Positions 1 through 64,000 of a stretch of DNA of 64,000 nt are shown here, piece after piece (position 1 is the first letter of the stretch; each line of letters begins with the position of its first letter). The position numbers and the translations under genes are program-made. A model generated the notes under the pieces. It had not been told where the DNA came from and did no database searches. It saw nothing but the letters and a program-made list of their open reading frames with translations. Source of the DNA: Geosiphon pyriformis uo1 (lineage: Eukaryota > Fungi > Glomeromycota); NCBI GenBank assembly GCA_016748015.1, contig JAAOMT010000523.1, forward strand, positions 186,001 through 250,000, read 5' to 3'.

Positions 1-1113
1 TTATAACACTTGTCAGCAAAGAGGAGGAACAAGACCCAGTGAACCATTAAGACCAATCAAAGTGAGACAATCATTCAACTGTATTAGAATTAATTTAGTC
101 AGACCATTAACAATCATCAGCAGAGGAAACAGATACATAGCAGTAGCCATGGACTATCTCACTAAATGGCCAGAGGCGAAAGCAATTCAAAGAGCGGATG
201 CAGAATCTGTTGTCAAATTCATTCATCAGGATTTGATTTGTCGACATGGATGTTCAAAAGAATTATTATCAGACCAAGGAACTCATTTGTGAACAGAACA
301 TTAACAGAATTGAGCCAAAGATTCGGAATTAAAAGACTATTATCATCACCATACTATTCACAAACCAATGGATTAGTCGAAAGATTCAATAGAACATTGT
401 GTGAAGCAATAGCTAAGCTCAGCCAAAAAAACCAGGACAATTGAGATTTGTTAATACCATTAGTATTATTTGCTTATCGGACAATGAAGCAAGATACTAC
501 ACAAGCAACACTATTTAAATTAGTATATAGTAGAACAGCAATATTACCTGTAGAGAGAAAAATTAATACATATCCAGCTGAACCAATAACAGAAGAGAAT
601 TTTCAAGAAACATTGCTGAGAAAAACATATGACTTAATGGAAACATTGGAAAACAAACAAAGAAGAGCAGCTGATAATATTCAGAAGTCACAAGAAAAAC
701 AGAAAAAAAGACATGATAGTCAACTACCAAACAAACCAGTTGAATTCAAGATTGGAGACAAAATACTTTTACATCGTACCAAAGTGAAAAAACAATGGAG
801 TAGAAAATTTGATCCCAAATGGGACAGACCATTTCACATAGAAAAAATTCTAGGAAATGGAGCTTACAAATTAAAACTGGAAAACAAAATCTTAACCAAA
901 GCAGCACATGGAGATCAGCTGAAACCATACCACAACACCACACCACCTTTCACCAGTAATACTCCACAATTAGGGATACAGAGAATACTGGTCCAACCAA
1001 ATGAGATTCCACAAGATCTGGAACCAATCATTATTATTGACAACAACATGTAAAATTGATTCATTAAAAGAATATATAAAGACATGGCAGACATGACAGA
1101 AAAGATCAGAAAA

Positions 1114-1745
1114 ATGGAAATTACAGACAACATTCACTCACTAGCACAACAACTTTTTCAATTGATCCAACACCAAGAAATGAAGATTACAATCAATCAA
1201 CAAACCATTCGATATCAAGATACCAGAAGGACAGTACAACACAGAAGACAGAAAAAAAACCAGAAAATACCATCAACAAAATCATGGTAAAAATAAAATT
1301 GGCAATAAAAAAATCAAAAAAAGAGTCAATATATCAAGAATTGACTAAGGAAACTTGGAATTGGTGGATACAACAATTTCCAAGAAACTATTGTTATTTT
1401 TACTTAGAACAACACATGAATATCCAAAACTTATACATGGATAAAACAAAGTGGTTATTTAACACAATAATATTACAACAACTAGAACATTTTGTGAGGA
1501 AAAACAACTTATCTACACAAGCTCAAGCTGTATACCGAATACACACAGCCTTTCAGGATTGACCAGAAATCCTACTCAGCAAAGCAATGGATATGGTTAC
1601 TAGTAATCAATTGGGAAAAATCACCAATGCTCAATTTGAAGAATTACAAACTCAAATAACACAAGTAATTCTTGAAAACGAAATCCAGGAAATACTTCAA
1701 GAGAGGGAATTAAACAAGTTGGATTTCAATGGAGCTCAATATTAA
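1114..1745 (+). pseudogene. Extra ORF of element A between integrase and PPT (unknown function; frameshift and stop)
   Basis: MEITDNIHSLAQQLFQ...AVYRIHTAFQD...LDFNGAQY*. Homologous segments occur in elements B, C, D and F. Confidence 0.8.
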
Positions 1746-1761
1746 AAAAAGGAGGGAATAA

Positions 1762-2626
1762 TGTTACTTACAAAAATATAGGAAATATAGTAGCATGATT
1801 ATTAGCCAATCAGAAGTAAACATAGTAAATGTGGAATTTCAGAATTCCTCCCAGAAATTATAGGATTCCAGGAATTACAGGATTCTCACACAAGGAATTG
1901 CAGGATTCCAGAATTCTAGGATTTCTCTCAAAGGAATTGCAGAATTCCAGAAATTCCAGAATTCCTGTCATGAAGAATCAAGGAATTAAGGAATCTCAAT
2001 TATGTATATATAACAGTAGTATTAGAAGCTGAAAGAAGAAACCTCTCAGTTTAGATTTGATCTAAACAATCTTCTAGTTTCAATCATCAAATAAATAATT
2101 ATTTCATATCTCAATCCACTTTCTACTATCAACACTTCATGTTGATAGTAATTGATACTTAACCACACTGGAACAATAGCTTTTGATCATGGCTATTGAT
2201 AAGATACTAACTTACCAAATTGTCTTGGCTTATTTTTATTTTTGTTATTTTCTTTATTTGATTTTTTTTCTTTGATTTTGTTGTGTATACTAATTGATTA
2301 AGGATTAAAAGTGCTAAGTTATTGATGTCACAAATAGTCTGGTAAAAGACCCAGAAATAAGAGTAGATTTATATATATTATCAGTTAGCTTACCAGAAGG
2401 GCACAACTGCCAGAATAAATCCAGCCACCAAGCTGAAAAAAAAATTGGGAAACAACTGACAACAAACAACAAATTGCCACACTATTGAATCTCTGTCCAT
2501 TATACAAAGGATTCCATCAAAACCTTCAGATACAACACCTTCAGAATATCATTGATGGAAATAGCTTTTGAGCACCAAGTTACGGGTTTGCATTTAATTC
2601 AACACTAGAAATTGTTACCTGTAACA
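1762..2626 (+). repeat. 3' LTR of element A (LTR family A)
   Basis: TGTTAC/GTAACA termini. CCAAT ~1806, GGAATTCC-type repeat array 1830-1995, TATA-like tatgtatatata ~2001, AATAAA ~2090. Homologous to 12289-13136. Confidence 0.93.
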
Positions 2627-3364
2627 TCGTGCTTCCAAACTCACTAAATCTTTGAGAGCTAAGAAAGCAAACATTAGGTCTATTATTGATAAGAGAATGG
2701 AGAGCTTTAAGGTCAACAAGAGTCATATGATCAGGAGTATGCTGGAGCATCTATTTCATAAAGTGGTGTTAGACTATCTGATGGTTAATGATAATCTGAT
2801 TTTGGAATCTGATTTAGTTAAGTCTAAGATGGATGTGATCATGGAAGGATAAACCAGAAAGCATCATGTGGCTAATGATGTGTTAATTGATTGGCGCCAT
2901 CAATATCAACCTTTGGAATACATTTTTGATAAGGCCTTTTCTGGTGTGATATGTCCAATTGGTTTTGATGAGTTCTTTGGGGTGGTTTTTGACTTGCCTG
3001 ATAGAAAAACTGCTGGTTTGTCTGGTATCTTGAATGAACTTTGAAAACATTGCAATAAGTCTATTCTGAATATGCTTTTGGTGATTTTGAACCTCTGTCT
3101 GTTTGATGAATTGGTGTCTGGCCCTTGGAAAAAGGCCTGGGTCTCAATAATTCTCAAACCATATAAGTGAGAGGGTGTTTTGACCAATACTTGTCCTATT
3201 GCTTTGATCGAAACGGCTCGTAAGATTCTTTCTAAGGTTTTTTCTGACAGGATTTCCTTGGCATGTAGTGCTTTTGATGTCCTTCATGAAGACAATTTCT
3301 CAGTTTTAAAAAATACAAAAACTCAGTCTCCTATTTTTGCAATTGGTTCAGTGGTTGAAGACGC

Positions 3365-4373
3365 TGTTACCAGAGATTTTTGGTCTCTTTTCTTAAATGT
3401 TATTAATGTCTGTTTGTTTTAAATTCACGTTTTCTAGAAATAGTTGAACCTCCAATAACTGAATTTATTTTCAAATTATTTCCTATAATTTGAACTGCTG
3501 GGCTTATAAGTGAAATGACCAATTCTATGCCAGTTACTTTGTATAGTTACGTTGTAGTAAATGCCAACTTTTTTCCAGGAATTGCTCATCTGGAAACTCA
3601 CTAAAATGTGTAGTTACTTTGCTGTGAAAGTCAACTCTTCTACAGAAATCTTGTCTGTAGACTACCCTAATGATTACAATAAGAAAATAAAAGAAAATAA
3701 AAGAAATGTAAAAGAAATTAAATTCTGTCAAGGGAAACGTTTTCTATCCAGGCCTGGAGTCACTAATAGTTTACTGAAATTGGTAGTTAATCAATTTTAA
3801 AACGTTAGTTGAGTTTTGGGAATTTTCCAAGTGCAATAATTAAAAAATTTGGTTTTTCGAATTATTTAATATTTATTTTTTTTTGTGTGTGTAAGAATGG
3901 TTCTAGTGATAAAATCTAAAGTAAGATACATTTTTTTGAAGAGAAAAGCTCTTCTTTTATACAACTTGTTATAGTACTAGTCTATAAACTTGCACTTTTT
4001 TTCTTTGCTCAAATTTTGGTGAACTAAAGATACATTTTGATGAATTACAAGTTATTTTGCTGAACTATTGATTAATTTGGATGAACTATTCATAATTTTG
4101 GCAAATTTCTATAAATTTCGGCAAATTTCATATAAATTTCGGCAAATTTCTGTAAATTTTGGTGAATTTTAGAATGTTACAAAGTTTAGGGTATTGTGTA
4201 ATTTGATCATCTTACTTTCTGTTGTACTAATTGGATTATTAATTGAATCGTAATATGTGATAAATTGATTGAATAATAAGTGATAATTTGGATTGATATT
4301 AACATGTTAATTACTGATAGGAATTATAAGGATAATTTCATGCTAATTAATAGCTAAAATTCTACTGGTAACA
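3365..4373 (-). repeat. 3' LTR of element B
   Basis: Direct repeat of 13314-14321, adjacent to the PPT (plus strand taacttcctcctt, 4374-4386). aaatttcggc tandem array at 4093-4170. Confidence 0.96.
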
Positions 4374-4384
4374 TAACTTCCTCC

Positions 4385-5061
4385 TTAAGACTGAGCTTCG
4401 TCGAAGTCCAAGTACTATCTGTAATATCAAGATAGTAGTCCAAGATGATTGAAGTGATTTGCTCTGAAAATTGTTGAAATTTCAGTTCTGTGAGCTTTCC
4501 AATGTATTGTATTTTCAATGGTTGAAGTATTGGGCTTTGTAGGACATTTTCACAAGTATTAAACAAATCATAGAGTCTAAGAGCTGCTCTAAGTTTGTAG
4601 TGAGTGTTTGTTGATCCAGCTGCTGTCTTGAATTCATTGTGAATTTGTTTTTGTATGGCTTTTGGAATGGTATTTGTTGCTTCAAGTTCTAGTTTTTATT
4701 CATAAAGTGTTTTTCCCATGTGAAAGTATTTATAGATAGGGGTGTGTTCATTGTCTTGTTCATTGAGAAGTAGTAGAAGTTTTTGTTGCATTGTAGCATT
4801 TGGTAAAATGTCAATAGGGGCAATTAAAAAATTTTCTTCCAGTGCTTGCTTCAAAAGTCTTGGTAACTTATTTTCAGAGTGACTTCTTGTTTTTCTTTTA
4901 TAAAGGTGATAGTTCTGTAGATGGTTTACTACTGGGGCTGTGGTTTCTTTTTGAATGTAATTAATTTGACTTCCATTAATTGTTATAGATAAGTCAGGAA
5001 GTGTTTTCAAGGCTAATATTAACTTTTGGGATATTTGTTGAATATTTCGAGAAATAATCAT
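4385..5061 (-). pseudogene. Extra ORF of element B
   Basis: MIISRNIQQISQKLILAL...YFHMGKTLYE...AALRLYDLF...IGKLT, ending DFDEAQS* after a frameshift. Homologous to the extra ORF of A. Confidence 0.75.
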
Positions 5062-5099: not shown

Positions 5100-5144
5100 A
5101 ATTATTTTTGGGTATGGGGTTTTTGTTTTTTTTTGGATTTGGGT

Positions 5145-5223
<79 letters not shown>

Positions 5224-5295
5224 TTTTTTTTTTTATTTTTTTTTCTTTTTTTTTTTTTTTTTTTTTGGGTTTTTTTTTTTTTTTTTTTTTTTGTG
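5100..5295. repeat. Poly(T)/low-complexity tract between integrase and the extra ORF of element B
   Basis: Near-homopolymeric T run. May be partly an assembly artefact. Confidence 0.85.
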
Positions 5296-8200
5296 TAATT
5301 ATTTACTATTTTTGTCTTTGTGTTTTTTTATTAAAAAATTATTGTAAAATTTAAGTGTTCAAGTTTGGTTGTTGTTCTATTATAATTATTGGTTCTAAAT
5401 TTCGGGGAATATCTTCAGGATTAATTAAAAGAAAATGTGTACCAATTTGTGGAATTAATAATTCAGGATTGTTTCTGAAATGATAGTGTTTCAATCTGTC
5501 TTCATGTGCAACTTTTGCTAGTATTTTGTTATCAAGTCTTAACTTGTATGATCCATTGCCTAGAATTTTGTGAATATAAAATGGTCCATCTCATTTGTTT
5601 TCAAATTTCCCATTCCATTGTTTTTTAGCCTTAGTTCTGTGTAAGAGAACTTTATTTCCAACTTTAAATTCATTGGTAATGGGTGGTAATTTGTTGTCAT
5701 GTCTTTCTTTTGTTAAGCTTGAGAATGTTCGATATGAGTTGCTGCTATTCTTCTTTTTTCTTCCAGTATACTAAGAAGAGTGTAGGCCCTTCTTTGAAGT
5801 ATTTCTTGAAAGTTTTCTTCATTAATTGGTTGCACAGGGTATGTTTCCATTGTGAAATTAATTAGTAATATTGCTGTTCTTCCATAAATAAGATCAAATA
5901 ATGTGTGTTTTGTAGTATCTTGTTTTAGTGTTCTGTATGCTAGTAACACTGATGGAATAAAAATATCCCATTCCTGCTCAAAATCTGTTGAGACTTTGGC
6001 CAATAATTCACACAATGTTCTGTTAAAATGTTCTACAAGTCCATTTGTTTAAGGGTGATAAGATGATGATAGAGGTCTTTTGACATTGAATTGTTCACAA
6101 ATTTTTTGTATCAAGTTGTTCACAAAATGTGTTCTTTGATTAGATAAAAGTTCAATTGAACATCCATGTCTATAAATAATGTCTTTATAGATGAAATTTG
6201 CTACTGATTTTGCATCTGCTCTTTGGATAACTCTAGCTTCAGGCTATTTGGTAAGATAATCTACTGCTACTGCAATATAGTGATTTTCTTGGGTTGTGAT
6301 AAGTAATGGTCCAACTAAATCAATTCCAACTCTGTTAAATGGTTGTCCAATTTTGATTGGATTTAAAAGTTCTGTGGGGTGAGTTTCTTCTCTTCTTTGA
6401 CAACTATCACAAGATTCTACATATTGTCAAATGTTTTTTTGCATGTGAGACCAAAAATAATGTTCAAAAGTTCTTTGAATTGTTTTATCTCTTCCCAAGT
6501 GTGCTGAAGACGGATTTGTGTGCATGTTATATAAAATTGTTTCTTTTTCATTTTCCTGTACTAATCTGAATGGTTGGTTTGGGTTTTTGTGATTTTTATA
6601 ATAGATTTTGTTGTGGTGTATGACATATTGCTTTGATTGGTGTTGTAAACAATGTTTTTTACTTGGAGACCAATTCTCTGGCATGGTAAGAGTCTCCAAA
6701 TAGTTTTTAAGATTGCTGTAGTTTCTGGAATCTATTGTTGTTTGGTTATTTTGTTGGTAGGTTGGTAAGTTATGGTGGAATTGTTGTTGGTGTTAGTTTT
6801 GTCTCATTCTTGAAAGGCTATCAACATTGGTGTGTAGTTTTCCTGGTTTGTGATGTACAATGTATCTGTAGTCTGCTAAGAAGTCATTTCATCGAGACTG
6901 TTTGGCACTTTGTTCAATTTTCTTTTTATTAAGCCATTTAAGGCCAATATTGTCAGTTATTATGTCAAATTCTTTTCCATTCTTCAAGTATTGTTGAAAA
7001 AGTTTAAGAGCCCAGATGACTGCAGCAGCTTCCAATTCAGTTGAGTCATATTTGAGTTCTGTTGACTTGAGTGTTTTACTGGCATAAGCAATGACTTGTT
7101 CCTGGCCATTTTTATTCAATTGTGATAAAATAGCACCAAATCCTATATGTGAAGCATTAGTGGCTAATTGGAACCGTTTGTTGAAATCTGGATAAGCAAG
7201 AACTGGGGCTGTTGTCAATTTTGTTTTGAGAGTTTTAAAAGCTTTTTATTGTTCTTCAGTCTATTTGTATAACACATTTTTGTTGGTAAGATAATTAAGT
7301 AGTTTGGCAATTTCTGAGAATTTTTTTATGAATTTTTGATAGTAAGAGGCTAATCCTACAAATTCTCGTAGTTTTGTAGTATTTCTAAGAGTTTGAAAGT
7401 TTTTGACAGCACTAATTGTTCCAGGATTTGGTTTGACTCCATTTTTGTTAACAATGTGTTCGAGAAAGATTAAGCTTGTTTTTCCAAAGTGACATTTTTC
7501 AATGTTTAACTTCAATCCTGCTTTCTGTAATCGTTGAAAAACTTTTCACAGGTGGATAAGATAAGTCTTAAAGCTTGGTAAGTATACATTAGTATTATCA
7601 AGATAGACAACTACTGATTGCCACAAGAGCCCTTCATATACAACATCCATGAGTTGCTAAAATGTTGCTGGTGCATTGCAAAGTCTAAAAGACATAACAT
7701 TAAACTCATAGTTTCTTTCTTGAGTGGTAAATGCTGTTTTGGGTCTATCTTTTGGATCTATTTTGACTTGTCAGTATCCACTTTCCAGGTCTAAAGTTGA
7801 GAAAAACTTGGCTTTTTCTAGAGCATCTAACATGTCATCAATTCTTAGAAGAGGGTAAATATCTCTAATTGTAACACTATTCAGTTGTCTATAATCAACA
7901 CAGAATCTGATTTTTCCGTTTTTCTTTTTAACTAAAACTACTGGTGAGGCCCAAGAACTTCTTGATGGTTGAATCAATCCATTATTGAGCATTCTTTGGA
8001 TCTCTTCTCTGATGAATTGGTGGCTGGCAGGTGGCATTCGATAAGCTTGTTAACATTTTGGTGGAGCATCTCCTGTATGGATCTGATGTTGAACAATGTT
8101 CGTTTTTCCCAAATCATTGTTGTCTTTTGCAAATATATCTGCAAATTCAGCTATTAATTGTTTTAATTGTCTTTGTTGTTGAGATTCTAAGGGACCCATG

Positions 8201-8639
8201 TTGATTCAAGAGAGTTTTTCTTTCAAAATGTGGTAGTTTTTAGTGGTAGAAATGATATTTGGATTTAGGAGTAGAGTGTGCTTTACAATTCAATGAAATT
8301 AGAGACAATTTGAGGGTTTTTTTCTTGAAAAATATTGCTGTGTATGATTCTAATTTCTAATTTGTTTAATAAGACAATAGGGTAATTATTGGGGTTGTAG
8401 AATATAACTTGAAATTTTTTCATTCCTTTGGAAATATAAACGTTTAGAATTGATATTTCATGCTTCAAACAAATTTGTTCATTGGATTCAAAGATTTGTT
8501 GAGTAGTAATGGGTTTTGAGCAAGTGTAAATTTCATGATGTTCTCCAAAAAGTGAAATAGTAATTGGTTGTGGAAGTTGAAGAATCTGGTAAGATTCATT
8601 TTGTGTATTAAGAGCTATATTTACTGAAACTGTAAATCG

Positions 8640-9030
8640 TCCAGTTGAACCAAAACCTTGAGTTCCTCTTTCACTTTTTCCCAATTGTTCTCTGTTGTTT
8701 ACTAATTGTAAACCCGAAATGCTGATTAAGAGTAAGTAAATTGCTTAAGCAATTTTTTCAGCATGTTCAATTTTGAATGGTTTGTCTGTCTCATTTTGTA
8801 ACATAATGGTAATGTTTCCAGTGTATTCTGCATCTATAACTTCTCCTCTAATATTGATTTCTTTGCTTGCCAATGATGATCTGGAGGCAATTTGAACCAT
8901 TGCTCCTGGTGGAATTTTAAGAGCAATTTTGAGATTGATTTTTGTCAAGGACTTTGGTTGGAGAACCAAAGTATCTTTTTCTGGGTATTTTAGGTCATAT
9001 CCAGCATCAATTTTATGTGCTTTTTCTGGT
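8640..9030 (-). pseudogene. dUTPase domain within pol of element B
   Basis: All five trimeric-dUTPase motifs: AGYDL, ASRSSLA, (G)VIDAEYTG, EKIA*A, RGTQGFGSTG. Confidence 0.92.
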
Positions 9031-12000
9031 CTGATTCCTTGGCCATGGTTGTCGAAATATTTAAGTTGTAGAGATGGTTGCTTTTTAAGAAGATAGATGG
9101 GAGTGGTTGGTAGTTCTTCTACTAGTTCAGATACTCCAAATTCGATTTTATTTTCATCATTCTCATCTGGCAGAGGAATGCTAAGAGCATAATATTCTAA
9201 ACACTATTGGTCATCACAAGGCATAACACATTCTTTACACAATTGAATGTTCATTTGCTCTAATCATTAAATTTGAGCTTCTTTGATCGGATATGTGTGA
9301 CTTGCAATTTGGTGGTAGGTTTCTACTTCATTTTCATAATCAAATCTAGCTAATTCTATGGTATACTCAATATATTCAGCTTTTTTCATTTAGCAGACAT
9401 CTTCTTGGGTGGCTCCATTGATCAATGCTATTGCTAGGTCAAAAATTATTTTAGTATCATGAGGGTAATGGTAAAGTTTATTGAGAGTACTGTTGTATGC
9501 TGCATCAAATGGTGTTCCTCTTCTGACTTTTTTCGAAATTAATAGAGCATATTGACAAATCTGATCACATACTCCTCTTCTTATTGCTACATTAATCCAA
9601 TTGCATTCTTCTGGTAGTTTTTTTCCACAAGTAAGGCAAGGAGTTTTGTCCCATTTTCCACTTCTCTTTGGGGATTCAAATTGTTTTCTATGGCATGCCT
9701 TATAGAAGTAGCAGGTGCAAGTTTCATATTCCTTTTTTGGAGAAATACAGGCTCTCATAGATGAAAGCTTCTTTTTGCAATTTTTGCATTTTAGTGGAAT
9801 GTATGGTGGTTCTTTTTGTGGTTCTAGTGTGGAATATCTAACTTTCTTCCATCCTCTTGATTCTTCAAAAATCTCTTGTTCTGTTTCCTCAGCCCAATTG
9901 GATGGTGATCTAAAAGCCATGTAGGTTTCAGTAAGTGGCATTTTCTTCTCTTTTTTAAATTCAAATACTGGAGCTTTTTCTGATTATTTGTTAAAGGTAC
10001 CACAGGTTGCAGATACTATGGTATATTGTCCTTGGTATAAGATTTTAAGTTTTTGAGTTTCCCAGTTCAGGTTTGTATTGGCCTTAAGAAGCCAATCATT
10101 TCTGACTAGAGCTTAGTATTGGGGTGCATCCATAATAAGAACTTTAACTGGAATGATGATTCCATCAATTGTAAAAAAGAAATCATCAATTTCTCCTACT
10201 AGAGTCTTCTTCATATCATCAGCTGTGACAATAACTGTTTGAGCTAGTCTGTCTATATTTTGTTTGAGTTGTTGCATCAGCTGGTAAGTGATGATACTTT
10301 CAGCCAATCCACTATCTGAGATTAAATGAATGGGGTTTTCTTCCACTGTAGCTTCTGTGTACATAGCAGTAATTGCTTTCTGTTCATTGACTGCTGCATT
10401 ATTAAGCAGAAATGGTGATTTATTTGCTTCAAATTCAAATGGAAATATATCTGACAGATTGGCATTTTGGGCAATTTGAGCTGGTGGAATGGTGTGGTTG
10501 GAAGGGTTTGATCTTGGTGCTGCAACTTCACCTTCAGAAAGTGCAGTTTGTTGAAAATCCGATTCCTCTGGTATTGTAAGATAACTGGGTTGAGTGTGAT
10601 AGTGATTGGGTTTTTGCTGACCAGAATTTCGGGGAACCAACTGGTTATTTGGATTGATTCTGTTGTTGTTACTCTGCAATTGATTTTGGGATGTGAATTG
10701 GTTATGTTGAACCAATCTTTTTGCTGATACTTGATATTGTTGAGTGGGTGGTGTTTAATATGGCTGAATTGGTAAAGGTTGCTGATATTGTTGCTGTATT
10801 GGTTGTGGAGCTGGTAGATAGTAACTGTTTTGATTTTGTGGTCTTGGTGAATAATAGGTTGGTGGTAGAGATTGGTAATAAGATTGTTGTGGTAAAGAGT
10901 AATATTAATTACTCCTGTTTTGTTGGTCTCTTTGTAATTTCCTACAATCTCATTTCCAGTATCCTGGAATTCTACAATAATAACAATTTTGAGGTTGGTT
11001 GTTGGATGGTGATCCAAAATTGTTTTGGTTGCATCATTGTGGGAGTTGATATCTTTGTGGTTGTTGTTGCTGTTGTTGTTGGTTTGTGAAGTAGCTTTCA
11101 ACCTTTTTTGTGAGTTGGTCTATTTTCTCTTCAGCTGCTGAGCTGGTTTCTCCAATTGTAAGATTTACAAGCTTGGTGTGATTTGCTTCTTCTATTGCCA
11201 TTTTATAGCTCTTTACATATTTAATAGCAGTTGCTAAGTCTGCTGGAGCATGTGAACAGACTTTTTTAATTAGTTTGTCTTTTAACCCTGCTATAAACTA
11301 ATCCAGAATTTGAGCATCAGAATAGTAGTCATTGGTTTCCAATTGTCGGATTTGTCTGAGAAGTTTGTTAAATCTTCCAAAATAGGTCATAACAGTTTCA
11401 GATGTTTCTTGTTTGATATTGCAAAAGCGGTTTCTGAGAGTGATAGAGGTATTGTTGTTGGTGAATTGTTGTAGAAAAGCATCTTTGAATGCTTGCCAGT
11501 TTTTAAATGGTTTTTCTAAATTTTCAAACCATTTTCCTGTTGTTTCTTAGAAAAAGTAGGGAATTGTTTTAAGCATTTTTGCTGCAATCCAACTATTTAC
11601 ATCTCCTGCTTTTTGAACTTTGTTGAGCCATTCTTGAGGACTGGTATCATTATCTTCACCTGTGAATTTTGGAATCTTTGCAATATAAGCAGTTGCTATT
11701 TTCTCTTCATTTTCTGTGGTTTTTTTTTGTTCTGATTCAGTTTCTTCACTTTCCAAATTTTCTGAATGATCACTTTCGTTTTCCTGCAAGTATTCAATAA
11801 TATTGGTGCTTGTTGATATAGGTTCCTGCTGTTGAGTAGAATTTCTAGGTGACTGAAAATCTTCTGGTCTGGAGAAACGGTTAAGTGGTGAATTTGGTGT
11901 TTGTGGTCGAGCAAGTGAAATTGAAAATGGTGTGATAAAAAGTGGTAATTTGATACTGGTTCCTTGTTCAGATGTTTGCAAGTGTTTGGCAGTTGTCTTT

Positions 12001-12288: not shown

Positions 12289-13136
12289 TGTTATTCATAG
12301 AATAGAGGAAGTATATTATTATTAGCAAGTAAAGATTAGCCAATCAGAAATAGACATAATAAATGTGGAATTCCAGAATTACTCTCAGAGGAATTGCAGA
12401 ATTCCAGGAATTGCAGAATTCCTGTTGCAAGGAATTGAAGAATTGAGGAATCTCAAATATGTATATATAGCAGTAGCATTAGAAGCAAAAAAGACAGAAT
12501 TAACACCAAGAATCCTTAGCTTAGTTACCACAATCCTCAAATAAATAATTATTCACTATATCAAATTCATTCTTCACTATCAACACTTTATGTTAATAAT
12601 AACTGATACTTAACTATACTGGAACAATAGCTCTTGATTACAGCTATTGATGAGATACTAACTTGCAAATTGTCTTGGCTTATTTCTTATTTTTTCTTTT
12701 ATCTTTTCTTTATTTTCTTTGTTGTCTACTAACTTGATTAAAAAATTTACTCTTGGAAAACTTACGGAGAAATAAAACTTACTTAAAAAATACTTATTCT
12801 TGGAGAACTTACAGAGGAATAAACTTGCTTAAACAATACTTACTCTTGGAGGACTTATGGAAAAACTGACATCAGGAAACAGCACTGGTATACACTTATG
12901 AAAGATATCGTACCAGAAAAATCATCAACCATCAAGCTGAGCAAGCAATCGATAAAACTATGGTTTCAGAAAACTACTGATAAACTGTTACCATTGAATT
13001 TCTGTCCATTATACAAAGAACTCGATTGAAAAACCTTCAGACAAAATACCTTTAGATTATTATCATCATCCATTGCTTTGTGCACCAAGTTACGGATTTG
13101 TTATTTACTTGACACCCCAAAGAATCACCTGTAATA
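12289..13136 (+). repeat. Solo LTR (family A) inserted in gag of element B
   Basis: Homologous to 1762-2626. Termini tgttat/gtaata, TSD atag/atgg. The gag frame of B rejoins across it. Confidence 0.9.
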
Positions 13137-13313: not shown

Positions 13314-14321
13314 TGTTACTGGAGATTTTTGGTCTCTTTTTTTGAATGTTGTAAATGTTGATTTGCTGTGAATTCATGTTTTTTAGAAGTAGTTAAACCT
13401 CTAATAACTGAATTTATCTTCAAATTATTTCCTATAATTTGAACTGCTGGGCTTATAAATGAAATGGCCAATTTTATGCCAGTTATTTTGTATAGTTACA
13501 TTGTAGTAAATGCCAACTTTTTTTCAGGAATTGCTCATCTGGAAGCTTACTAAAATGTGTAGTTACTTTGCTGTGAAAGTCAACCCTTTTACAGAAATTT
13601 TGTCTATAGGCTACCCTAATGATTACAGTAAGAAAATAAAAGAAAATAAAAGAAATGTAAAAAAAATTGAATTCTGTCAAGGGAAACGTTTTCTATTTAG
13701 GCCTGAAGTCACTAACAGTTTACTGAAATTGGTAGCTAATTAATTTCAAAACATTAGTTGAGTTTTGGGAATTTTCCAAGTGCAATAATTAAAAAATTTG
13801 GTTTTTCGAATTATTTGATATTTATTTCTTTTGTGTGTATAGGAATAATTCTAGTGATAAAATCTAAAGTAAGATACATTTTCTTGAAAAGAAAAGCTTT
13901 TTTTTTATATAACTTGTTGTAGTACTAGTCTATGAACTTGCACTTTTTTTTTTTGCTCAAATTTCAGTGAACTAAAGATACATTTTGATGAACTACAAGT
14001 TATTTCACTGAACTATTGATTAATTTGGATGAACTATTCATAATTTCGGCGAATTTCTATAAATTTTGGCGAATTTCATATAAATTTTGGCGAATTTTTG
14101 TAAATTTTGGTGAATTTTAGAATATTACAAAGTTCAGAGTATTGTGTAATTTGATCATCTTACTTTCTGTTGTACTAATTGGATTATTAATTGAATCGTG
14201 ATATGTGATAAATTGATTAAATAATAAGTGATAATTTGGATTGATATTAACATATTAATTACTAATAGAAATTATATGGATAATTTTATGCTAATTAATA
14301 GCTAAAATTCTACTGGTAACA
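13314..14321 (-). repeat. 5' LTR of element B
   Basis: Direct repeat of 3365-4373; differences are mostly transitions. Confidence 0.96.
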
Positions 14322-17300
14322 ATGCTTTGGAAAAAAACCAAGAGTTCTGACTAGTTCTACAGGACATGTAGAAAGCATATAATTTGGTTGGCTGGAAACA
14401 TCTCAAAAATAGTTTGATCAGAATTAAGATGTGTAGCAAATTCATTCGTTTTTTTGGCAATATTCACAATAATCATACCAACCAGGTTATGACAGATTTC
14501 GGTTTGATGGATGGTTATCATGTACATGATGGCCTGGATCAGGAAGAAGTTTTCTCCCTCCTTTTGTGGCAAATATTTTATGATTCTTTGTTGTGTAAAG
14601 TCAAGTATCAGAAAAGTGTATATGGATATATGGGCTGGACATTTTTTCTTTTTTGCTGCTGGCACCTTCGTGAATGATACAATTTGGGTTGGTAGCAGTC
14701 AAAGTGCTACTCAACATATTCTCAATATTGCCAGTAAGTTTTTTCAGATCAATGATATCTTAATTAACAATAACAAAACAGTGGCAATTCCTATCAACAG
14801 CAGGGTCAACAATCCTTCTCTTTCTATCAGTGGTCTACCTATTTCAATCACAAAAAAGAGGAGTCTCATAGATACTTGGATATTTTTCTTTCAACTGAGA
14901 GCCTTTCTAAACCTAGTTTGATGAGAGCGCATTCAAATGTTTGTTTTTTCACTAATTTGGTATTGAAAAAAGCTGTCTCAGATAAACAGTTTTTGTATTT
15001 GGTTTTGGTGGTTCTCCATCCTATTGTAAACTATAGAACACAGTTTAGCTTTGTTTCTGTTGGTGTGTGCAACAAATGGGATGCTTTGATTCACAAGGAC
15101 TTGAAGCTAAAATCTGGTCTTCTATGGGACTTTCCTAGTGATACAATTCATTACCCCTTCTTTTATGGTTTAAAATCTTTTTCACAGTGTTAATTTGAAG
15201 GTAAGATTGCTTCACTTATTAGTTTTGCAAACTCTGATGGGATTTTGGGACACTTGTTTAGTTACAGGTCTTATGACTTATAGATTCTGTGTTAGTGACT
15301 TGTCCATCTATTGGTTTCCTCTGCTCATATTCATGTCAATGTTTCCAATAATTTCTTAGCTGGTATGGTTCACATTTTTTTTGACTGCAAGTTGTCTTTG
15401 GATGGCTCTTTGGCCAGCTCTTTCTGGTTTCATAGTGGAGTACCTATGTCTGTTGTTCTTGGTGAGTCTTTGTTTTGCAAGTTTTTATCTTCTCTCTGGT
15501 GTTATGGTGTCGTCTTTGTGGACCAGCTTTGTAATTGTTATGGTAGTGTTTTTAGCTGACACACCTTTAAGCAGTTGAAGAGACTGGACTCTTGTGGTCC
15601 AGTTTCTGAGTGGTTCAAACTTTTTATTGTATTTCTTGTGGCTTCTTGTTCTTTTTCTTCGACATTGGCTGGTGTTGGCCCTCTGAACATTTATTGTTCT
15701 GATGATTTTGTATCTGTCTGTGATCGTTTTTTCCAGGTTGGTGCTGATAGCTTGTCTGTGTACATGGATGGTTTATTGAAAAATTTGGACATGATTAATT
15801 GTAGAGCTAGAGCTGCTGCCTTTTTTGAGAACATTAATTTGGGTTTGGATGTCAGTGTTCAGGGCTTAGTGTTATCCACTTTGATAGAACTGTAGGCTAT
15901 AGTGTTGGCTCTAGAGTGCATGCCTACAGCTTGTTCTGTTTATCTGTTTTCAGATAGTCAGACAGCTTTGGATGCTTGCAGATCGAAGTCTGACTTAAGA
16001 TGTCCTGATTTTTACAATCAGTGTTGGGTCAAGTGCCGGCATATTAGGAATGTTATTTGTAGTAAGAATTTGAGAGTTAAATGGCACAAAGTTAAGGGCC
16101 ACTCTGGTATTTCAGAGAATGATTATGCCAATAGCCTCACTAATGCTGCATCTCTCTCCGGTTGGTATCTTCCTTCTCATATTAGTGAACATTTTTTGTT
16201 GGCGGATGGTGGTGTTGTTTCTGGTAATTCTAAGCATTTTGTTCATGATGTTTTTCATACTGTTTGTTGTGTGTATTGGGAGGTCGGTTCTGGTTCTGGA
16301 TTTCTAGATGGTGATTTGCATTCAGATGTTGATTGGCTTTGTTCTTTTGGGGTTTGGCACCCTAATTTGCATATGGCCACTGGTTTTACTAGCAGGCTGA
16401 CTGCTGATACTCGAACTTACTTCATGAAGGCTTTGCACTGTCAGCTTTCTGTGGCTGTTCAGAAGCACATTTACAATAAATATTACTCTAGTGTTCTGTG
16501 TCTGTATTGTGGTGAGGTGGAGGTATCTGATCATGTGTTTTCTTGTGTAATTAATAATTCAGGTCATTGTCAGGTCTTGGAATCTTGTATGTCTTCTTAG
16601 AGAGTACTTTCTGGTTTCTCTCTTCCTTCTTTGGATGTATTGCAGCTGTTGTCAACTTGTGCTTTAGACTTTTCAGTTTCTTCAGCTCTTTTCAAGAGTT
16701 TTGTTTTTAATGGATGGCTTTAGAAGATCATTTTCATCTTCCATGATCCAAAAATTGCTGGTGTTAAAATTTTTGATTTTGTGCAATCTATTTGTCTTGC
16801 TTTCAGGAATAACATTTGATTGGTCTGTGCTAAGCATTACACATTTATGGAAAAAAATGGCCTGATTCCTATAGATAACTTGATTTCCATCTTGGTTTCT
16901 GGTTTGGTTTCTGGGTTTTTGACTGGTATAATTAAATTGCTTGGTATTGCTGAAGCTTTTGGTGTCTGTTTTGGCTTTCACAAGTCTTGTTCGTTTTTTT
17001 CAGGTATTGGTGACCTGGTTTCTGTCAATATAAGTGCATAGTGTTGTCCTGACTGGTTCAAGTGACTGGTCACATGTAGAAAATGCATGATTCACACTTA
17101 GTTTAGATTATTTTCTTAATGTATAGTTCTAAATGGTGTTTAGACTTCATTCATTAAATCAATAAAAAAAAAAAATTAATTACCAAAAATTAAATTAAAA
17201 AAAAAACAACAGTTTACAAAAATGCTTTTTTTATATAATATAAACATAGATATTTATTAACTATTAAAAAACACTTTTTTTGGTTTTAAGTAAAAATCTA

Positions 17301-31939: not shown

Positions 31940-32350
31940 GAAGATATTATGCCAGAACACGCACATAATATTAACACAGGGTTTGATCTAAAATATCTGA
32001 AGAAAGATCCCATCAAATTGGAACCACATTTGTGCACTTGCATTGATCTGAAAATAGCACTGGAAATTCCAGCAACAATAATGGTTCAACTAGCATCTAG
32101 GAATAGTTTAGCAAAAAAAAAATTAGCATTAGAGGAGGAATAATTGACACAGGATATGTAGAAAATATCATTGCTATGCTACAAAATAATTCAGAAAAGG
32201 CATATATCATAGATCCAAATGAAAAAATAACACAGACAATATTCCTACCTCTGGTGAAAATAGCTCAATTAGTGTTAGTAGAAAACAGGGAAGAATTAGG
32301 GATTACAGCTAGAGGGATACAGAAATTCAGATCAATAAGTAGAATAGATA
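31940..32350 (+). pseudogene. dUTPase domain within pol of element C
   Basis: TGFDL, ASRNSLA, GGIIDTGYV, EKITQ and RGIQKFRS (decayed motifs I-V). Confidence 0.88.
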
Positions 32351-35300: not shown

Positions 35301-35639
35301 TCATACTAAAGCGAAAAAACAATAGAGTGGAAAATTTGATCCCAAATGGGATGGACTATTTCACATTGAAGAAATTCTTGGAAATGGAGCTTACAAATTA
35401 AGATGGAACAACAAAATCTTAACCAAAGCAGCACATAATAATCGACTGAAACAATATTACCAGATAGCATCATCATCTACCAATAACATTTCACAATTAG
35501 GAGTACAAAGAATACTAGTTCAACCAGATGAGATTCCATGAGATCTAGAACCAATTATAGTTATTGAACCAAACACGTAAAATCAAACAATCAAAAAGTA
35601 TATAAAGACACAGTATACGCGACAAAAGCAATCAAGAAA

Positions 35640-36274
35640 ATGGAAATACCAGATCATATTCACACTATAGCTCAACAACTATTTCAGGCCTTAAGTTAAT
35701 AACAGTTAGACATGGAAATTATCATTAACAACCAAACAATTTGCTATCGAAACACTAAAAGAAAGACAAAGAACACACCATATTAGTGGGTACCAAAGAA
35801 TGATAAAAACTGGTCAGATAACATAATAGAAAAAGTAAAGAACATGTTTGAGAAAATATCTATTATAGCACCAACAGAAAAACTTACAAAAGAGAATTGG
35901 AAGCAATAAACAAAACAACTTTCAATATCATATTGTTACTACCAATTAGGTTAGAAGTTGAATATTCAGGAGTTGTATATTAACAAATCTAAGAGAATAT
36001 TCAACCAAGACATAATACAACAAATTAAAGAATTTATTGGAAAGAAAACAAATTCAATACTACATATTAGAACAATGTACCGACTACACAACATATTTCA
36101 AAACTATCCAAAAATACTGTTACACTCTGACATGGAAACCATAACCATTAACCAATGGGAAAAATGAACAATACACACGTGGAAGACATGAGAAACAGAA
36201 TCAAACAAACAATACTTGAAAAAGAAGTATTAAAATTAATTCAAAACAAAGATTTCAATAAAGCTTAATATTAA
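35640..36274 (+). pseudogene. Extra ORF of element C
   Basis: MEIPDHIHTIAQQLFQAL...TMYRLHNIFQNYPKILL...DFNKA*Y*. Confidence 0.75.
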
Positions 36275-36288: not shown

Positions 36289-37129
36289 TATTACTCATAG
36301 AAAAGAAAAACAGATATAGAAAAATAGTACACCAATAAGAGAGTAGTAGTTAGCACGTGAGCACATTGCTCAGCAATGTGGAGCAATGTCAGAAATCACA
36401 GCACATCACTCAGCAATATGAAGCAATGTCAAAAAAATATGGCATATTGCTTAGCAATATGAGCATTGCTTAAAAAATTATAGCACATTGCTTGGGAATG
36501 TGAGCAATTTTGTAGAACCCAAATTATGTATATATAGCAATAGTATTAAAAGTAGAAAGAACAGACCTTTCAGTTTAGATTTAATCTAAGCAATCTTCTA
36601 TTCACAAATATCAATAAATAATTATTCACCATTTCAATCCACCCTCCACTATTAACACTTCATGTTAATAGTAAGTGATATTTAACTACATGAGAACAAT
36701 AGCTTTTGATTATGGCTATTGATAAGATACTAACTTGCAATTGCTTTTGTTTATTTCTTTATTTTTTCTTTTATTTCTTTTGTTTTGTCATTTCGTTGGT
36801 TTTACTAAACTGATTAAAAATTAAGTGCTGAGTTATTAATGTCAAGGATAGCCTGGTAAAAAACCCCAAAGGAAGGGTATAGAAATTGAGAATTTAAAGA
36901 TAGCTTACCAGAAGGACATCTCTGCCAAGATTACTGGCCACCATGCTGAGAAAGAAATTTGATGAAATTGCAATTCTAGGAAGCTATAAGAAAGACAACA
37001 CTTGAATCTCTGTTCATTATACAAAAGATTCCACAACAAAACCTTCAGATATTGACACCAGAATACCAATCCAGCACCAAGTTACAGATTTGTTATTTGA
37101 CTTAAGATTCCAAATAATCATCTGTAACA
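36289..37129 (+). repeat. 3' LTR of element C
   Basis: tattac/gtaaca termini. R-U5 homologous to family A, but U3 carries CACATTGCT-N-AGCAATGTG palindromes. Confidence 0.92.
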
Positions 37130-44752: not shown

Positions 44753-45095
44753 ATGACGCAAGACCTGCTTACGACACAAGCAATTAAAGTTGACGTAGAC
44801 GAAAGGTCAACCGTAACAGAAACTGACGATAGTTCTGGAACCGATGCTAGTGACCCGGAACCTCCGACAACGAGAAGCGGTCTTAAAAGAACCGCTCCTA
44901 TCGGTGGTGCTCGACAAGGTGATCCCAAGAGAAAAGATACAAGAAAAGGAACTGAAAATAAATCATTTTCAATAACAGAAAAAGAGAAGGTCTCTTTTAC
45001 TGACCCAAACTCAACTACGACTAATACGTTGGCTGCTAGTGCTGCCGCATTCCTTTCAACTGTACCTGCCCAAAATCTTGTTTCCTCCAAAGATG

Positions 45096-45137
<42 letters not shown>

Positions 45138-46852: not shown

Positions 46853-47345
46853 ATGGAAAGCATCATCGAACAACAGCGTAAAGCTCATGAAGAGATAGAA
46901 AGACTGGAACAGGCGATCGTTGACCAGTTTATGAAAGATCCCAAATCAGTGAGTTTACATTGTTGCGAATTTTTAGCTTCTTACCTATTTAACTTTGCAA
47001 CCTTTGCAGCATAAAGAAAGATTAACTCGGGAACATCGTGTAAGCGATTTCCTCGATAGAATAAGTTCACGTAGCAAATTTTTGTTTGAGCTTTACGAAG
47101 ACTCCGACGGGTGGGTTTATTTTTAAAGCGAATATAATACCATAGTAAACTAACATTGAAAACTTTTTTGTCAGAGCGAGGAAAACAGAAATTGATGCTT
47201 TATCTGGAACTTCGGAATTTAGCGAATTTTATGGGCGTTTAAAAGCAATAAAAGATTATCATCGTCGATATCCCAACGAAACTGTCGAACCACTAGAATT
47301 AGAATTCATAAATCAGTCGAAAGAAAATGGCGAGGATGATGGTAA

Positions 47346-52187: not shown

Positions 52188-53008
52188 TATTACTCATAGA
52201 AAAAGCATACAAGAAAATAGTAGAAAAAACAGATAGACCAATAAGAAAATAGTAGTTAACATGTGAGCATATTGCTTAGCAATGTAAGTATTGCTTGAAA
52301 AATTATAGCACATTGCTTAGAAATGTAAGTAATTTCATAAAACTCAAATTATGTATATATAGTAAGAATGTTAAAAGCAAAAAAGACAAAATTCCCAGCT
52401 AGAATCAATACTAAGATTTTTTAATTAAAACATCTTAGCTAAAATCATCAATATCAATAAATAATTATTTACTATCTAAATTATTCTCTACACTATCAAT
52501 ACTTTATCTTGATAGTATTTATTACTTAATCATACTGAAACAATAGCTCTTGATTATGGCTATTGATAGGATACTAACTTTTTTTGTCTTGGCTTATTTT
52601 TTTATTTTATTTTTTATTTTTTTTTTTGTTATTTACTAATTAATAAAAAGAATTAACATATAGGATACTGATGTTAGAATATAGTATTAATAAAAGACCC
52701 AGAAATAAGAATAGACACTTAGATTTGAGAATAACTTACTAAAAGATTGCTGGCCATCATGCCAAAAAAAAATTAATGAAATTGCAATTTCAGGAAATGA
52801 TGGACAACAAAGCATACCAACTTAAGGGTTAAAGAAACTAAAAACATTACATTAAGATACCAACATTGAATCTCTGTCCATTATATAAAAGACTCAACCA
52901 AAATCTTCAGATCACAAAACCTTTAGATAATACTAATCATAACAATTATTAAGTACCAAGTTACAAATTTGTTATTTGATCTGAGACCTCAAATAATTAC
53001 CTGTAACA
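52188..53008 (+). repeat. 5' LTR of element D
   Basis: Direct repeat of 62252-62845, followed by the PBS. Confidence 0.93.
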
Positions 53009-60800: not shown

Positions 60801-61595
60801 AGATTTGGAATCAAAAGACTATTATCATTATCATATTATTCACAAACCAATGACTTAGTCAAAAGATTCAATAAAATATTATATAAAGCAATCACCAAAA
60901 TTAGCCAAAAAAACCAGGACAAATAGAATTTGTTTATACCATTAGTACTATTTGCTTATCGAACAATAAAGCAAGACACTACACAAGCAACACTATTTGA
61001 ACTTGTTTATGATAAAACAGCAACATTACCAATTGAGATAGAAATCAATACATATTTAACTGAACCAATAAATGAAGCCAATTTTCAAAGAACATTACTA
61101 AAAAGAATGTATAAACTAATAGAAACATTAGAAAACAAAAAATAGAGAGCAGCTGATAGCATTCAAAGGTCACAAAAAAAATAAAAAAAAAGACATGATA
61201 ACTAATTATTAGACAAACTAGTTAAATTTAGAATTGGAGACAAAGTACTCTTACATTATATCAAAGTAGAAAAACAATGGAGTGAAAAATTTGACTCCAA
61301 ATGAGATAGACTATTTTACATTGAAAAAATTCTAGGAAATGAAGCTTACAAATTAAGATAGAACAACAAAATTTTAATTAAAACAGCACATAAAGATCAA
61401 CTAAAATCATATTATAATACAGTATTATCATTTATCAATAATATTTTACAACTAAGAGTACAACAAATACTAGTTCAACCAAATGAGATCCCATGAGATT
61501 TGGAACCAATTATAATCATTGATTTAAATGCATTAAACTGATTAACCAAAAGAGTATATAAAGACACAGTATATGTAACAAAAGAACTAAAAAAA

Positions 61596-62238
61596 ATGGA
61601 AATATTAAACTATATTCACACCTTAGCTTAACAATTATTTTAGGCCTTAACCCAACAACAATTTCCATGTTCAATTGTTGTCAACCACCAAACAATCTGC
61701 TATTGAAACACCAAACAGAAAAAAAAAACAAAAAATACACTATATCAGCGACCACAAAACCAAACAAGAAACTGGTCAGATAAAATAGTAAAAAAAGTGA
61801 AAAGCACTTTTGGGAAAATACCCATTATGATTCCAACTGAAGAATTCACAAAAAAAAAATTGGAATCAGTAAATGGAACAACTTCTAATACCATATTGTT
61901 ATTATCAATTGAGACAAAAATCAAATATTCAGAAATTATATCTTAATAAATTTAAAAGAATATTTAATCCAAAAATAATATAGAACATCAAAGACATTAT
62001 TGGAAAGAAAACAAATCTGATACTACACATTAGAACAATTTATTAATTACACACAAAATTTCAAAACTACTCAGAAATATTGCTATATCTCAACATGGAA
62101 ACAATAATTATTAACCAGTGAGAGAGAATGAACAACTTACAAATCGAAAATATAAGAAACAGAATTGAATAAACAATATTAGAAAGAGAAGTTATGAACC
62201 TAATTCAAAATAAAAATTTTAACAGAGCTTAATATTAA
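61596..62238 (+). pseudogene. Extra ORF of element D
   Basis: MEILNYIHTLA*QLF*AL...NFNRA*Y*. Same position and upstream TATA as in A and C. Confidence 0.7.
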
Positions 62239-62845: not shown

Positions 62846-64000
62846 TGTTACAGGATGGTTTTCTTGTTATATTTAATTGCTGATATCCCATTTTAATTGC
62901 AATCAGTCTTTCGTGAGTTCCTCAATTCTATTTGTGTGATAATGTTACTGTTATACTGAAGGCTTTTTTTTTAATGTTGTGATGTAAGTTATTCTTCAAT
63001 TCCTGATTGTTGTGTGTGTTTATGTACTTCTTCTCAGAGGCTGAACTGAAATCTACCCACTGTCTGGGGTCTTCTCTGAGGCTATCCTTGCAATTGCCTG
63101 ATGTGTTTTTCTAATCTAGAAACACAGAATGTTAATGGTCTTTAGCACTTTTTCTAATTCTTACAATAAAGCTTTTATCAATTAGTAACAATGTAAATAA
63201 TCTTGATCAAGAATTATTCTTCCAAAAGATTCAGTTGATGAATAATAGTTTTATTCAATAAATAATAAAAGTAAGTTTCTTAATACTTTGGGTTATGATA
63301 ATTTAGTTTTAAATATTCTTTTTCATTTCTTTTTAATTTAAAGGTTTCTTGGGATATTTAATTTGAAAGTATGATTTAAAGTGGAGTTTGTTAGATAAAA
63401 TTGGATCTATTGCTTGATAAGTTATGATTTTTATTACTTTATTTCTTTTCCTAATATTAAAACTACTGTATATATACATGTTTGTAGTTCTATGAGAAAA
63501 CACATTGTAATACTTTCTTTTTGATATTTCAATCTGGTGTTTTCTGCTATCACCAGTTAGTGTTGGCTGCTATTGTGAACTGGTGCTTGCCACTATCGCG
63601 AGATGGTATTTGCTATTATGTTAATCATTACTTTTCTAAGATTATTACTGCGCTATATTATGATTGAATAGTTTGTATTATTTTTATGATTCTTTTTGCT
63701 AAATTTTTAAACCATAACATTATCCCCTCCTTTCAAAATTGAGCTTCGTCGAAATTGAAGTTAATTTCTTCATTAAATTCTAAGTTACTATAGTGGTTCA
63801 ATACTGTGTTATTAATTTGTTGTTGTAATTCTTGAAATTGCGAATTGGTAAGTCATCTAATACTGTTGGTTGTTATTATGTTTATGGTTGGGTCCAACAA
63901 TAATTTGTGACAGTTTTCAAATGCTTTGAAAATTCTGTAAACTGTTTTTGAATGGAATGTAGTGTTGGTTTTTCCAATGAAAGGTTCTAATAGTTGAATA
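62846..64000 (-). mobile_element. 3' end of Ty3/Gypsy element F (3' LTR 62846-63719, PPT, C-terminus of extra ORF), inserted in the 3' LTR of D
   Basis: tgttac.../...ataaca termini. Minus-strand PPT gaaaggaggggataa. The ORF ...KTVYRIFKAFENC...FNFDEAQF* ends at 63733. Confidence 0.88.

Follow-up and report, generated by a model that had tools for sequence, protein, structure and literature searches.

An accessory gene family between integrase and the 3' LTR in Gypsy retrotransposons of the fungus Geosiphon pyriformis

Sense-oriented additional open reading frames (ORFs) located between pol and the 3' long terminal repeat (LTR) of retrotransposons, designated aORF-3S, are described in sections of a review as env-like, some with transmembrane domains; according to the same sections, the env position is known to hold extra ORFs, which mostly have no assigned function (PMC7264820). 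Here, we describe an ORF of this kind in Ty3/Gypsy elements of Geosiphon pyriformis. The stretch analysed (contig JAAOMT010000523.1, positions 186,001 to 250,000; 64,000 nt, hereafter the window) is fungal DNA in which decayed Ty3/Gypsy elements are interspersed with host genes. Five elements, designated A, B, C, D and F, carry the accessory ORF, and genomic context beyond the window comes from one locus, a metagenomic contig (L001). The accessory ORF is sense-oriented and lies between pol and the 3' LTR, is apart from pol, occurs in many copies and is conserved as a protein, and by its anatomy it is a sense additional ORF that is not env-like. It resembles aORF-3S in position, sense orientation, the presence of many copies per family and the lack of an assigned function, but differs in that its product is predicted to be soluble and has no sequence-family match. 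The accessory genes of these fungal Gypsy elements make up a real family that is under selection and had not been described before, within a class that is itself already known.

Several other systems resemble this ORF in part. A figure legend in a report on fungal Gypsy elements labels an "add. ORF" without an assigned function (PMC2864245); the likeness is one of label and position, and the two are set side by side by description only. In the part of that report concerned with PosPlaTy3, a dUTPase-bearing fungal Gypsy element, dUTPase is located between protease and reverse transcriptase (RT), as in elements B, C and D (PMC2864245). In contrast to PosPlaTy3, the elements described here have no chromodomain that was found, an integrase split from RNase H by a stop, and the extra ORF. 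Another example is gene23 of the maize element Grande, presented in a section of the review as an accessory gene that lies in the 3' internal region, has a promoter of its own and encodes a nuclear protein (PMC7264820). However, gene23 is antisense and belongs to a plant element, and the likeness is by description. Tas of foamy viruses, as portrayed in portions of one account (PMC3185757), shares a proposed logic with the accessory ORF: an accessory ORF adjoining the 3' LTR, together with an internal promoter and the binding of motifs in U3; in addition, one accessory ORF of foamy viruses reaches into the LTR, like the B-type ORF. Foamy viruses, however, are retroviruses with env, no family match was detected, and the comparison is an analogy only. 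Finally, VANC21 and VANC6 of Arabidopsis VANDAL elements are characterized in excerpts of a further paper as accessory proteins that act on their own family only, through a short tandem motif (PMC6719617). This proposed logic may also be similar, but VANDALs are plant DNA transposons and no homology was found. VANC proteins, which counter silencing, bring about demethylation of their cognate elements. The accessory ORF is a member of neither Tas nor VANC.

Accessory ORFs and their separation from pol

The initial annotation had reported a sense ORF between integrase and the polypurine tract (PPT) in five elements, and all five were recovered. The A-type ORF of element A (1114..1745, plus strand) has a frameshift between ~1230 and 1284 and one in-frame stop, and its relatives include the A-type G. 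pyriformis proteins P0161, P0170 and P0179. Both C/D-type ORFs are damaged as well: that of element C (35640..36274, plus strand; 78% identical to the intact protein P0010) has five stops and a late frameshift, and that of element D (61596..62238, plus strand) has many stops and a frameshift near 61856. The F-type ORF is represented by its 3' part (63733..64000, minus strand), which is cut by the window end, contains one stop in the visible part and is 91% identical to P0058 over 65 aa. The B-type ORF (4354..5061, minus strand) has one in-frame stop, runs through the PPT and terminates within the LTR. Its start had been correctly placed at 5061; its end, previously set at 4385, had not, as the frame runs from 5061 to 4354 and the intact protein P0012 aligns with 5061-4357 in one frame (82% over 235 aa). 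Thus, none of the five copies is intact: all have stops, and those of A, C and D are also frameshifted. All are homologous. A profile built without B-type sequences scored the B copy with an E-value of 2.7e-11 (49.6 bits, Z set to 1e6), whereas the best of 600 shuffles reached 15.6 bits; the same profile scored the metagenomic proteins P0162 and P0171 at 67-72 bits.

By gene order, the host elements are Ty3/Gypsy LTR retrotransposons. In B, C and D, a tblastn map together with Pfam matches gave gag, protease, dUTPase, RT-RNase H, integrase, accessory ORF, PPT and LTR; the gag, protease, RT, RNase H and integrase order and the PPT ahead of the 3' LTR that characterize Ty3/Gypsy elements were mapped in these three, and LTR pairs were found for B and D. 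In element B, gag through RT-RNase H, a stop and integrase occupy 5408..11720 (minus strand; Pfam, tblastn map and junction inspection), and the 3' LTR (3365..4373, minus strand) is 92% identical to the 5' LTR at 13314-14321. In element A, the C-terminal part of integrase, with a Tf2-1-like SH3 region, is located at 445..1053 (plus strand; ORF list, tblastn with the L001 integrase, and Pfam SH3_Tf2-1 at E 1.6e-6, below cut-off), with a stop preceding the spacer, and the 3' LTR (TGTTAC...TGTAACA) at 1762..2626 (plus strand) with an LTR TATA near 2001. The matched part of the element D 5' LTR is at 52188..52815 (plus strand) and carries a C/D-type U3 palindrome. Pol DNA of A, C and D is 76-82% identical, and their LTRs are 71-76% identical from the TATA box onward; in alignment, these three elements are one clan, and the earlier view of five independent families is not supported. 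The LTRs had also been described as different, which is correct for U3 of A compared with C/D, to which the difference is confined, but not for the portion from the LTR TATA onward, which A, C and D have in common.

The accessory ORF is a gene separate from pol, as judged from the arrangement of the loci. In L001, RT-RNase H is followed by a stop, integrase, a 316-nt AT-rich spacer, an open accessory ORF in another frame, the PPT and an LTR beginning TGTTAC. Among gene models that were complete at the N-terminus, 74 of 81 had predicted starts within one residue of the profile start; of the remainder, three A-type models began 10 residues earlier and four were otherwise different. In 17 of 221 gene models, a piece of integrase was connected to the interior of the ORF at positions that varied, the pattern expected of predicted introns, and in none of the 221 was the spacer between integrase and ORF read through. 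Alternatively, the ORF could extend integrase at its C-terminus and be expressed by read-through, the TATA sequence described below being merely the codons Y-K-D. In A and D, integrase and the ORF do share a frame, interrupted by one or two stops, in which TATATAAAGAC encodes Y-K-D. However, the ORF is out of frame in C and, across its 316-nt spacer, in L001; the spacer of B is ~300 nt long; and no integrase family was listed for any of 14 longer proteins. Moreover, the 42 in-frame nt before the ATG differ between A and C/D at codon positions 1/2/3 by 5/5/3 and 6/3/5, with no third-position bias and hence without a codon-type pattern. Together with the absence of gene models crossing the spacer, these data largely refute read-through, which we regard as very improbable. 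In L001 itself, integrase has one in-frame TGA (L001:1564-1566) and the accessory ORF is open.

The 3' end of the ORF overlaps a conserved DNA motif. The protein ending F(D/N)xAQ had been proposed as a shared C-terminal motif, but "FDEAQS*" is not part of the B protein because it is read in a different frame from the B ORF. A DNA motif (..GAGCTCA..) followed by the PPT, at 1722..1761 (plus strand) in element A, can be aligned among A, B, C, D, F and L001 and is read in two frames; like that of B, the L001 accessory ORF extends past the PPT and ends within the LTR. Among 206 proteins tallied, 92 had this latter ending, of the "SLEEEIML" type, 21 ended in "GAQY/F" and 93 were partial or chimeric. 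Since both endings are two readings of one motif (GAGCTCA plus PPT), the C-terminal motif is best seen as a DNA element overlapped by the gene, and "FDxAQ" probably reflects a DNA motif adjoining the PPT rather than a protein motif.

The protein family is abundant in G. pyriformis. Database searches with the accessory ORF gave 238 matches, and the 120 listed were all "hypothetical proteins" of this organism (110 B-type, 8 C/D-type and 2 F-type), to which the window copies were 78-91% identical. Many copies of this unnamed family are therefore annotated as hypothetical host proteins, and their re-annotation as retrotransposon genes is due. An exhaustive profile search yielded 87 representatives, among which the A-type, one more type ("G") and some distant proteins were new. 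Sources were checked for ten of the 87 (six G. pyriformis, three metagenomic and one other NCBI record), and a second search brought three more metagenomic proteins; no named species beyond G. pyriformis occurred among the relatives whose sources were checked or the matches listed. In a tree of 17 rows, P0162 and P0171 formed a supported pair. This pair joined the B-type with support of 93/85, under the level that the tool marks with a star, and the P0209 group was placed outside. Unnamed Atlas clusters, mostly from Mucoromycota, scored 0.93-0.95 and are candidate relatives by cluster score. No relative was detected in viral contigs (two single queries) or in 50,697 phage records. Overall, conservation of the ORF as a protein extends over at least six lineages, which come from more than one source. 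In agreement with the initial annotation, no described family matched at cut-off in Pfam, PHROGs or NCBIfam, and no description of the family was found in the literature by a search largely without subscription papers and supplements. One G. pyriformis gene model, P0041, consists of fused B-type and G-type ORF copies, probably derived from nested elements.

Selection on the ORF and its divergence together with U3

The accessory gene had been suspected to be under selection, for which dN/dS was the proposed check. The ratio of nonsynonymous to synonymous differences per site (pN/pS, plain Nei-Gojobori) was below 1 (0.42-0.78, and 0.33-0.46 in strict segments). However, simulated neutral decay by transitions only gave 0.49 (0.33-0.67), and the observed values climbed to 0.60-0.89 when a transition weight of 48 was applied. 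We dropped pN/pS below 1 as sole proof of selection, because a low value is partly an artefact of transition-rich decay. Codon positions were then compared in frameshift-free segments. Differences at positions 1/2/3 were 29/15/39 for C-D, 49/28/66 for A-C and 48/23/56 for A-D, which corresponds to third:second position ratios of 2.4-2.6; neutral simulations matched for transition and transversion counts reached such a ratio in 0-2 of 400 runs, and the protein-guided alignment may inflate the test slightly for the pairs with A. This bias, which exceeds nearly all of the neutral simulations in the three pairs, indicates that the ORF is constrained as a protein. In the same comparison, the adjoining integrase showed mostly transitions (transitions:transversions 76:12, 67:17 and 83:16) and little position bias, suggesting mostly decay. 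The ORF also accumulated more transversions per codon than integrase, 0.62 versus 0.10 between A and C (6x) and 0.22 versus 0.07 between C and D (3x).

When A and C were compared per 100 nt, identity was 72-90% in integrase, 53-69% in the ORF and 53-59% in U3, and was again higher, at 72-84%, over the first 400 nt downstream of the LTR TATA. The ORF and U3 are, in these alignments, a diverged island on a common pol/R-U5 backbone. Accordingly, U3 regions could be aligned only within an ORF type, A with a solo A-type LTR and C with D. Each of several ORF types is accompanied by its own U3 repeat. A-type U3 has GGAATT-N4-AATTCC palindromes (at 1833, 1894 and 1933 in element A), C/D-type U3 has CACATTGCT-N-AGCAATGTG palindromes, element B has AAATT(C/T)GCC direct repeats and L001 has repeats of TTGCCCTAG. 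In element C, the palindromes form a tandem repeat with a period of 40-41 at 36360..36508 (plus strand), and the 5 palindrome centres of this U3 were reached by none of 100 shuffles. Palindromes were enriched in four of eight U3s, all of A-type or C/D-type (5, 0, 0 and 1 of 100 shuffles reaching the observed number; weakly for A). This co-divergence of ORF and U3 fits a lock-and-key cassette, and also plain linkage; A versus C/D is the one informative contrast. Tandem repeats that differ in sequence and have a period of 39-41 nt in common were observed in U3 of A (1862-1964), B (4012-4100), a solo LTR (12367-12451) and C (36360-36508).

A TATA box upstream of the ATG had been noted in A, C and D, and TATATAAA is present at 1073, 35599 and 61555, in each case 41 nt before the ATG. 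It begins a 12-nt block, TATATAAAGACA, that is identical in the three elements (1073..1084 in A, 35599..35610 in C and 61555..61566 in D, all on the plus strand) and is separated from the ATG without indels, and only 17 of 38 other spacer sites are three-way identical. The longest three-way-identical run inside the ORF is 8, versus 12 in this block, and the rough chance of a 12-nt identical run is 0.003 with kinship ignored. The block contains the sole TATAWAW in A 1-1745; C and D have two further TATAWAW each, in pol. Transcription typically starts 25-30 nt after a TATA box, in which case the two upstream ATGs of A would be skipped and the conserved ATG would be the first. Because A, C and D are one clan, however, the block represents two lineages of evidence. 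The proposal of an internal promoter is thus retained for this clan, in which conservation of the block makes an internal TATA promoter plausible and somewhat more likely than not, but not for the five elements together, as B and L001 have no TATA at that position.

Predicted fold and possible functions of the accessory protein

The accessory protein is predicted to consist of a compact core of six to seven helices, a basic linker and an acidic tail. The core of P0171 was modelled with a predicted local distance difference test (pLDDT) score of 91.8 and a predicted template modelling (pTM) score of 0.85, with seven helical segments; the full-length model of P0010 (pLDDT 76) added an N-terminal helix at lower confidence and two strands. 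Among nine database proteins, the linker (residues 36-75) was net basic in eight, and the last 30 residues were net acidic in seven. When the core was compared with 48,161 chains by VIA, three ParB-family DNA-binding domains were present in the top 50, namely Spo0J (1vz0, Z 5.0, root-mean-square deviation (rmsd) 4.7, 93 aligned residues), ParB (6s6h, Z 4.4, rmsd 2.6, 59 aligned) and KorB (1r71, Z 4.2, rmsd 5.2, 97 aligned), all below significance; the Spo0J and KorB alignments span the whole core with rmsd near 5. A ParB-type match to the full-length model had Z 3.0. According to VIA guidance, helical bundles with Z under ~13 may be merely a common arrangement. No Z of 5 or more was obtained for the full model or in a second VIA look, and no PDB sequence match was found below E 0.026.

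A second lead was the Pfam family DUF1016_N (PF17761, the N-terminal domain of YhcG), matched by 2 of 22 members at E 0.05; the best score, 14.1 bits, did not reach the gathering score of 32.8. With hhalign against a nine-sequence DUF1016_N profile, the probability was 28.6% over 71 nearly gap-free columns, with a score of 27.6, whereas 30 controls scored at most 21.3. DUF1016_N is a DNA-binding domain, and domains of the ParB/Spo0J/KorB type bind palindromic sites as dimers. Likeness of the accessory protein to the ParB/Spo0J/KorB domain and DUF1016_N comprises size, helix order and the pattern Y-[FW]-x-I-G ... G-K-[TG] ... R-x-[YF]-x-x-F over 71 columns; on the other hand, every score is below significance and the protein lacks a nuclease or CTPase domain. 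DUF1016 is described in part of one report as a nuclease family (PMC4316617). No viral transactivator family was present among Pfam matches up to E 1. The recurring weak fold leads are nucleic-acid binders, which alters the odds without establishing the fold; on these models, DNA binding through a ParB/DUF1016_N-like helix-turn-helix has about an even chance.

As the leading explanation, and by analogy with Tas and VANC, we tentatively propose, while holding it possible rather than expected, that the accessory protein is a family-specific DNA-binding activator or anti-silencer with a positive effect through the cognate U3 repeat. In such a scheme, the internal promoter would produce an early, low-level short transcript, from which a small protein that enters the nucleus would be made; through its helical core this protein would bind the U3 repeats of its own family, its acidic tail would recruit the transcription machinery or displace silencing, and the outcome would be more full-length RNA of that family only. 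If binding is cognate-specific, a retrotransposon would have its own equivalent of Tas or VANC, and the spread of these elements under silencing would be easier to explain. The pairing can be tested directly, since several lineages have natural proteins that are intact and, for each, a U3 repeat that is the candidate cognate. A broader version, in which a fungal Gypsy clade would encode a transcription factor of its own that is sequence-specific and based on a ParB/DUF1016_N-like helix-turn-helix domain of bacterial type, with an internal promoter, family-private U3 repeats, and ORF and U3 exchanged as a lock-and-key cassette, perhaps driving LTR expansion in Geosiphon, is doubtful as a whole.

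A number of observations weigh against the proposed activator. The distant P0209 group has neither the basic linker nor the acidic tail. No structural match was significant (no chain at Z 8 or above with the core by VIA), and unrelated proteins outranked the ParB matches, such as a PNPase helical domain (Z 6.0) and Orc6 (Z 5.7), each over about half of the core. No ParB-family chain appeared among the 50 rows of the second VIA look, and Foldseek gave no match at E 0.001 in PDB or BFVD, the best being an uncharacterised phage protein (E 0.06), with a DUF3102 protein at E 1.5. The DUF1016_N comparison, with its 28.6% and 14 bits versus 32.8, was picked post hoc from 24,736 families. B, whose mostly poly-A spacer is of doubtful quality, and L001 have no TATA at -41, although L001 has TATAAAT ~127 nt upstream. 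Distinct U3 repeats that could serve as a VANC-type family motif occur in A, B, C/D and L001, but repeats of this kind often occur in LTRs, where they act as enhancers for host factors; U3 of B (both LTRs), F and L001 had 0 palindrome centres, and F U3 has no repeated 7-mer. Furthermore, the ORF and U3 are adjacent, and a single recombination event would therefore move both without any binding. Around the internal TATA of A, C and D, exact U3 half-sites showed no clustering, dissimilar sites aside, whereas Tas, in the portions of the account available, also binds upstream of its internal promoter (PMC3185757).

Among other explanations, the protein may be a cofactor of the particle or integration complex, which would bind element RNA/cDNA or chromatin and aid packaging, entry into the nucleus or the choice of targets, as a substitute for a chromodomain. 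The basic linker is consistent with such a role, as is the lack of a chromodomain on the integrase C-terminus of A, where Pfam gave SH3_Tf2-1 only (the scan covered the integrase of element A alone). Nuclear or import roles have been proposed for accessory ORFs in sections of the review (PMC7264820). A closterovirus coat-protein cluster was found in the Atlas at 0.93 in both look-ups, and the filamentous-virus coat chain 6v7b had Z 5.2; however, the coat-protein leads have 149-156 features in common, below the Atlas guide of 170, and had no Foldseek support. RegA rows in the Atlas were likewise no more than leads. In addition, transversions in the ORF are 3-6x faster than in the adjoining integrase, which is awkward for an integrase partner, and we consider this role unlikely.

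A counter-defence function was also considered, in which the protein would act by protein contact, as a suppressor of RNA interference or a blocker of a methylation or restriction factor, or would exclude competing families; ORF divergence would then reflect an arms race and U3 would be only linked. Fast divergence of the ORF agrees with this possibility, and so does decay nearly all by transitions (72 of 75 between the B LTRs), as expected under cytosine methylation. Transposable elements are methylated and small RNAs are produced in the related fungus R. irregularis, according to the portion of a report consulted (10.1101/2021.03.30.436303). On the other hand, codon positions indicate constraint with no excess of amino-acid change, all recurring weak fold leads are nucleic-acid binders, and known counter-silencers of transposable elements, as far as part of one paper describes them (PMC6719617), are narrow and family-specific. 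Such a function seems rather unlikely.

The same fold leads and U3 co-divergence that suggest an activator would suit a self-repressor that binds its own U3 and lowers copy number, and KorB is a repressor. The acidic tail in seven of nine proteins argues against this, and LTR sequences, which account for 41.2% of the G. pyriformis genome in the section of the report that gives the figure (PMC11952901), do not suggest strong self-restraint; a repressor is improbable. An Env-like entry protein, favored by position and sense orientation only, is very improbable, and a membrane-anchored Env is refuted, in line with the initial annotation: none of nine proteins has a segment of transmembrane strength (highest 19-residue hydropathy 0.27-1.29, read from hydropathy) or a hydrophobic N-terminus, cysteines number 0-4, and the core is predicted to be a soluble helical bundle.

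Additional features of the elements and the window

A dUTPase domain was located between protease and RT in B (8748-9038, minus strand), C (31946-32232) and D (57925-58182). In all four elements with a visible junction, a TAA stop directly follows RNase H (B ~6793, minus strand; C ~34173; D ~60150; L001:772-774), and in L001 and C an ATG in the integrase frame is present after this stop. From these junctions, integrase seems to be a separate ORF in B, C, D and L001, which is unusual for Ty3/Gypsy elements. Element B also contains, between protease and dUTPase (9390-9983, minus strand), a cysteine-rich stretch with several CxxC pairs, which had no Pfam match and one weak NCBIfam match.

The spacer of element B (5105-5330) is mostly a 147-nt poly-T/A run plus simple repeats, and is possibly an assembly or sequencing artefact. 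An A-type LTR at 12335-13063 (plus strand), probably a solo LTR, is nested between the 5' LTR and gag of B. In the B LTR pair (3365-4373 versus 13314-14321), the 72 transitions among 75 substitutions showed no single strong dinucleotide context by eye. The F 3' LTR (62845-63720, minus strand) abuts or interrupts the D 3' LTR and had no second match in the window.

An RNase H detected by Pfam and related fragments occur at 15896-16600, 2906-3283 and 37017-37430, and we take them to be a probable non-LTR retrotransposon family. Host-gene stretches were observed at 20718-22508 (minus strand), 44507-45853 and 47149-48720. They include a bZIP factor gene identified by Pfam; the others, recognised from their translations, are presumably glucose-6-phosphate dehydrogenase and the splicing factor SF3a60.

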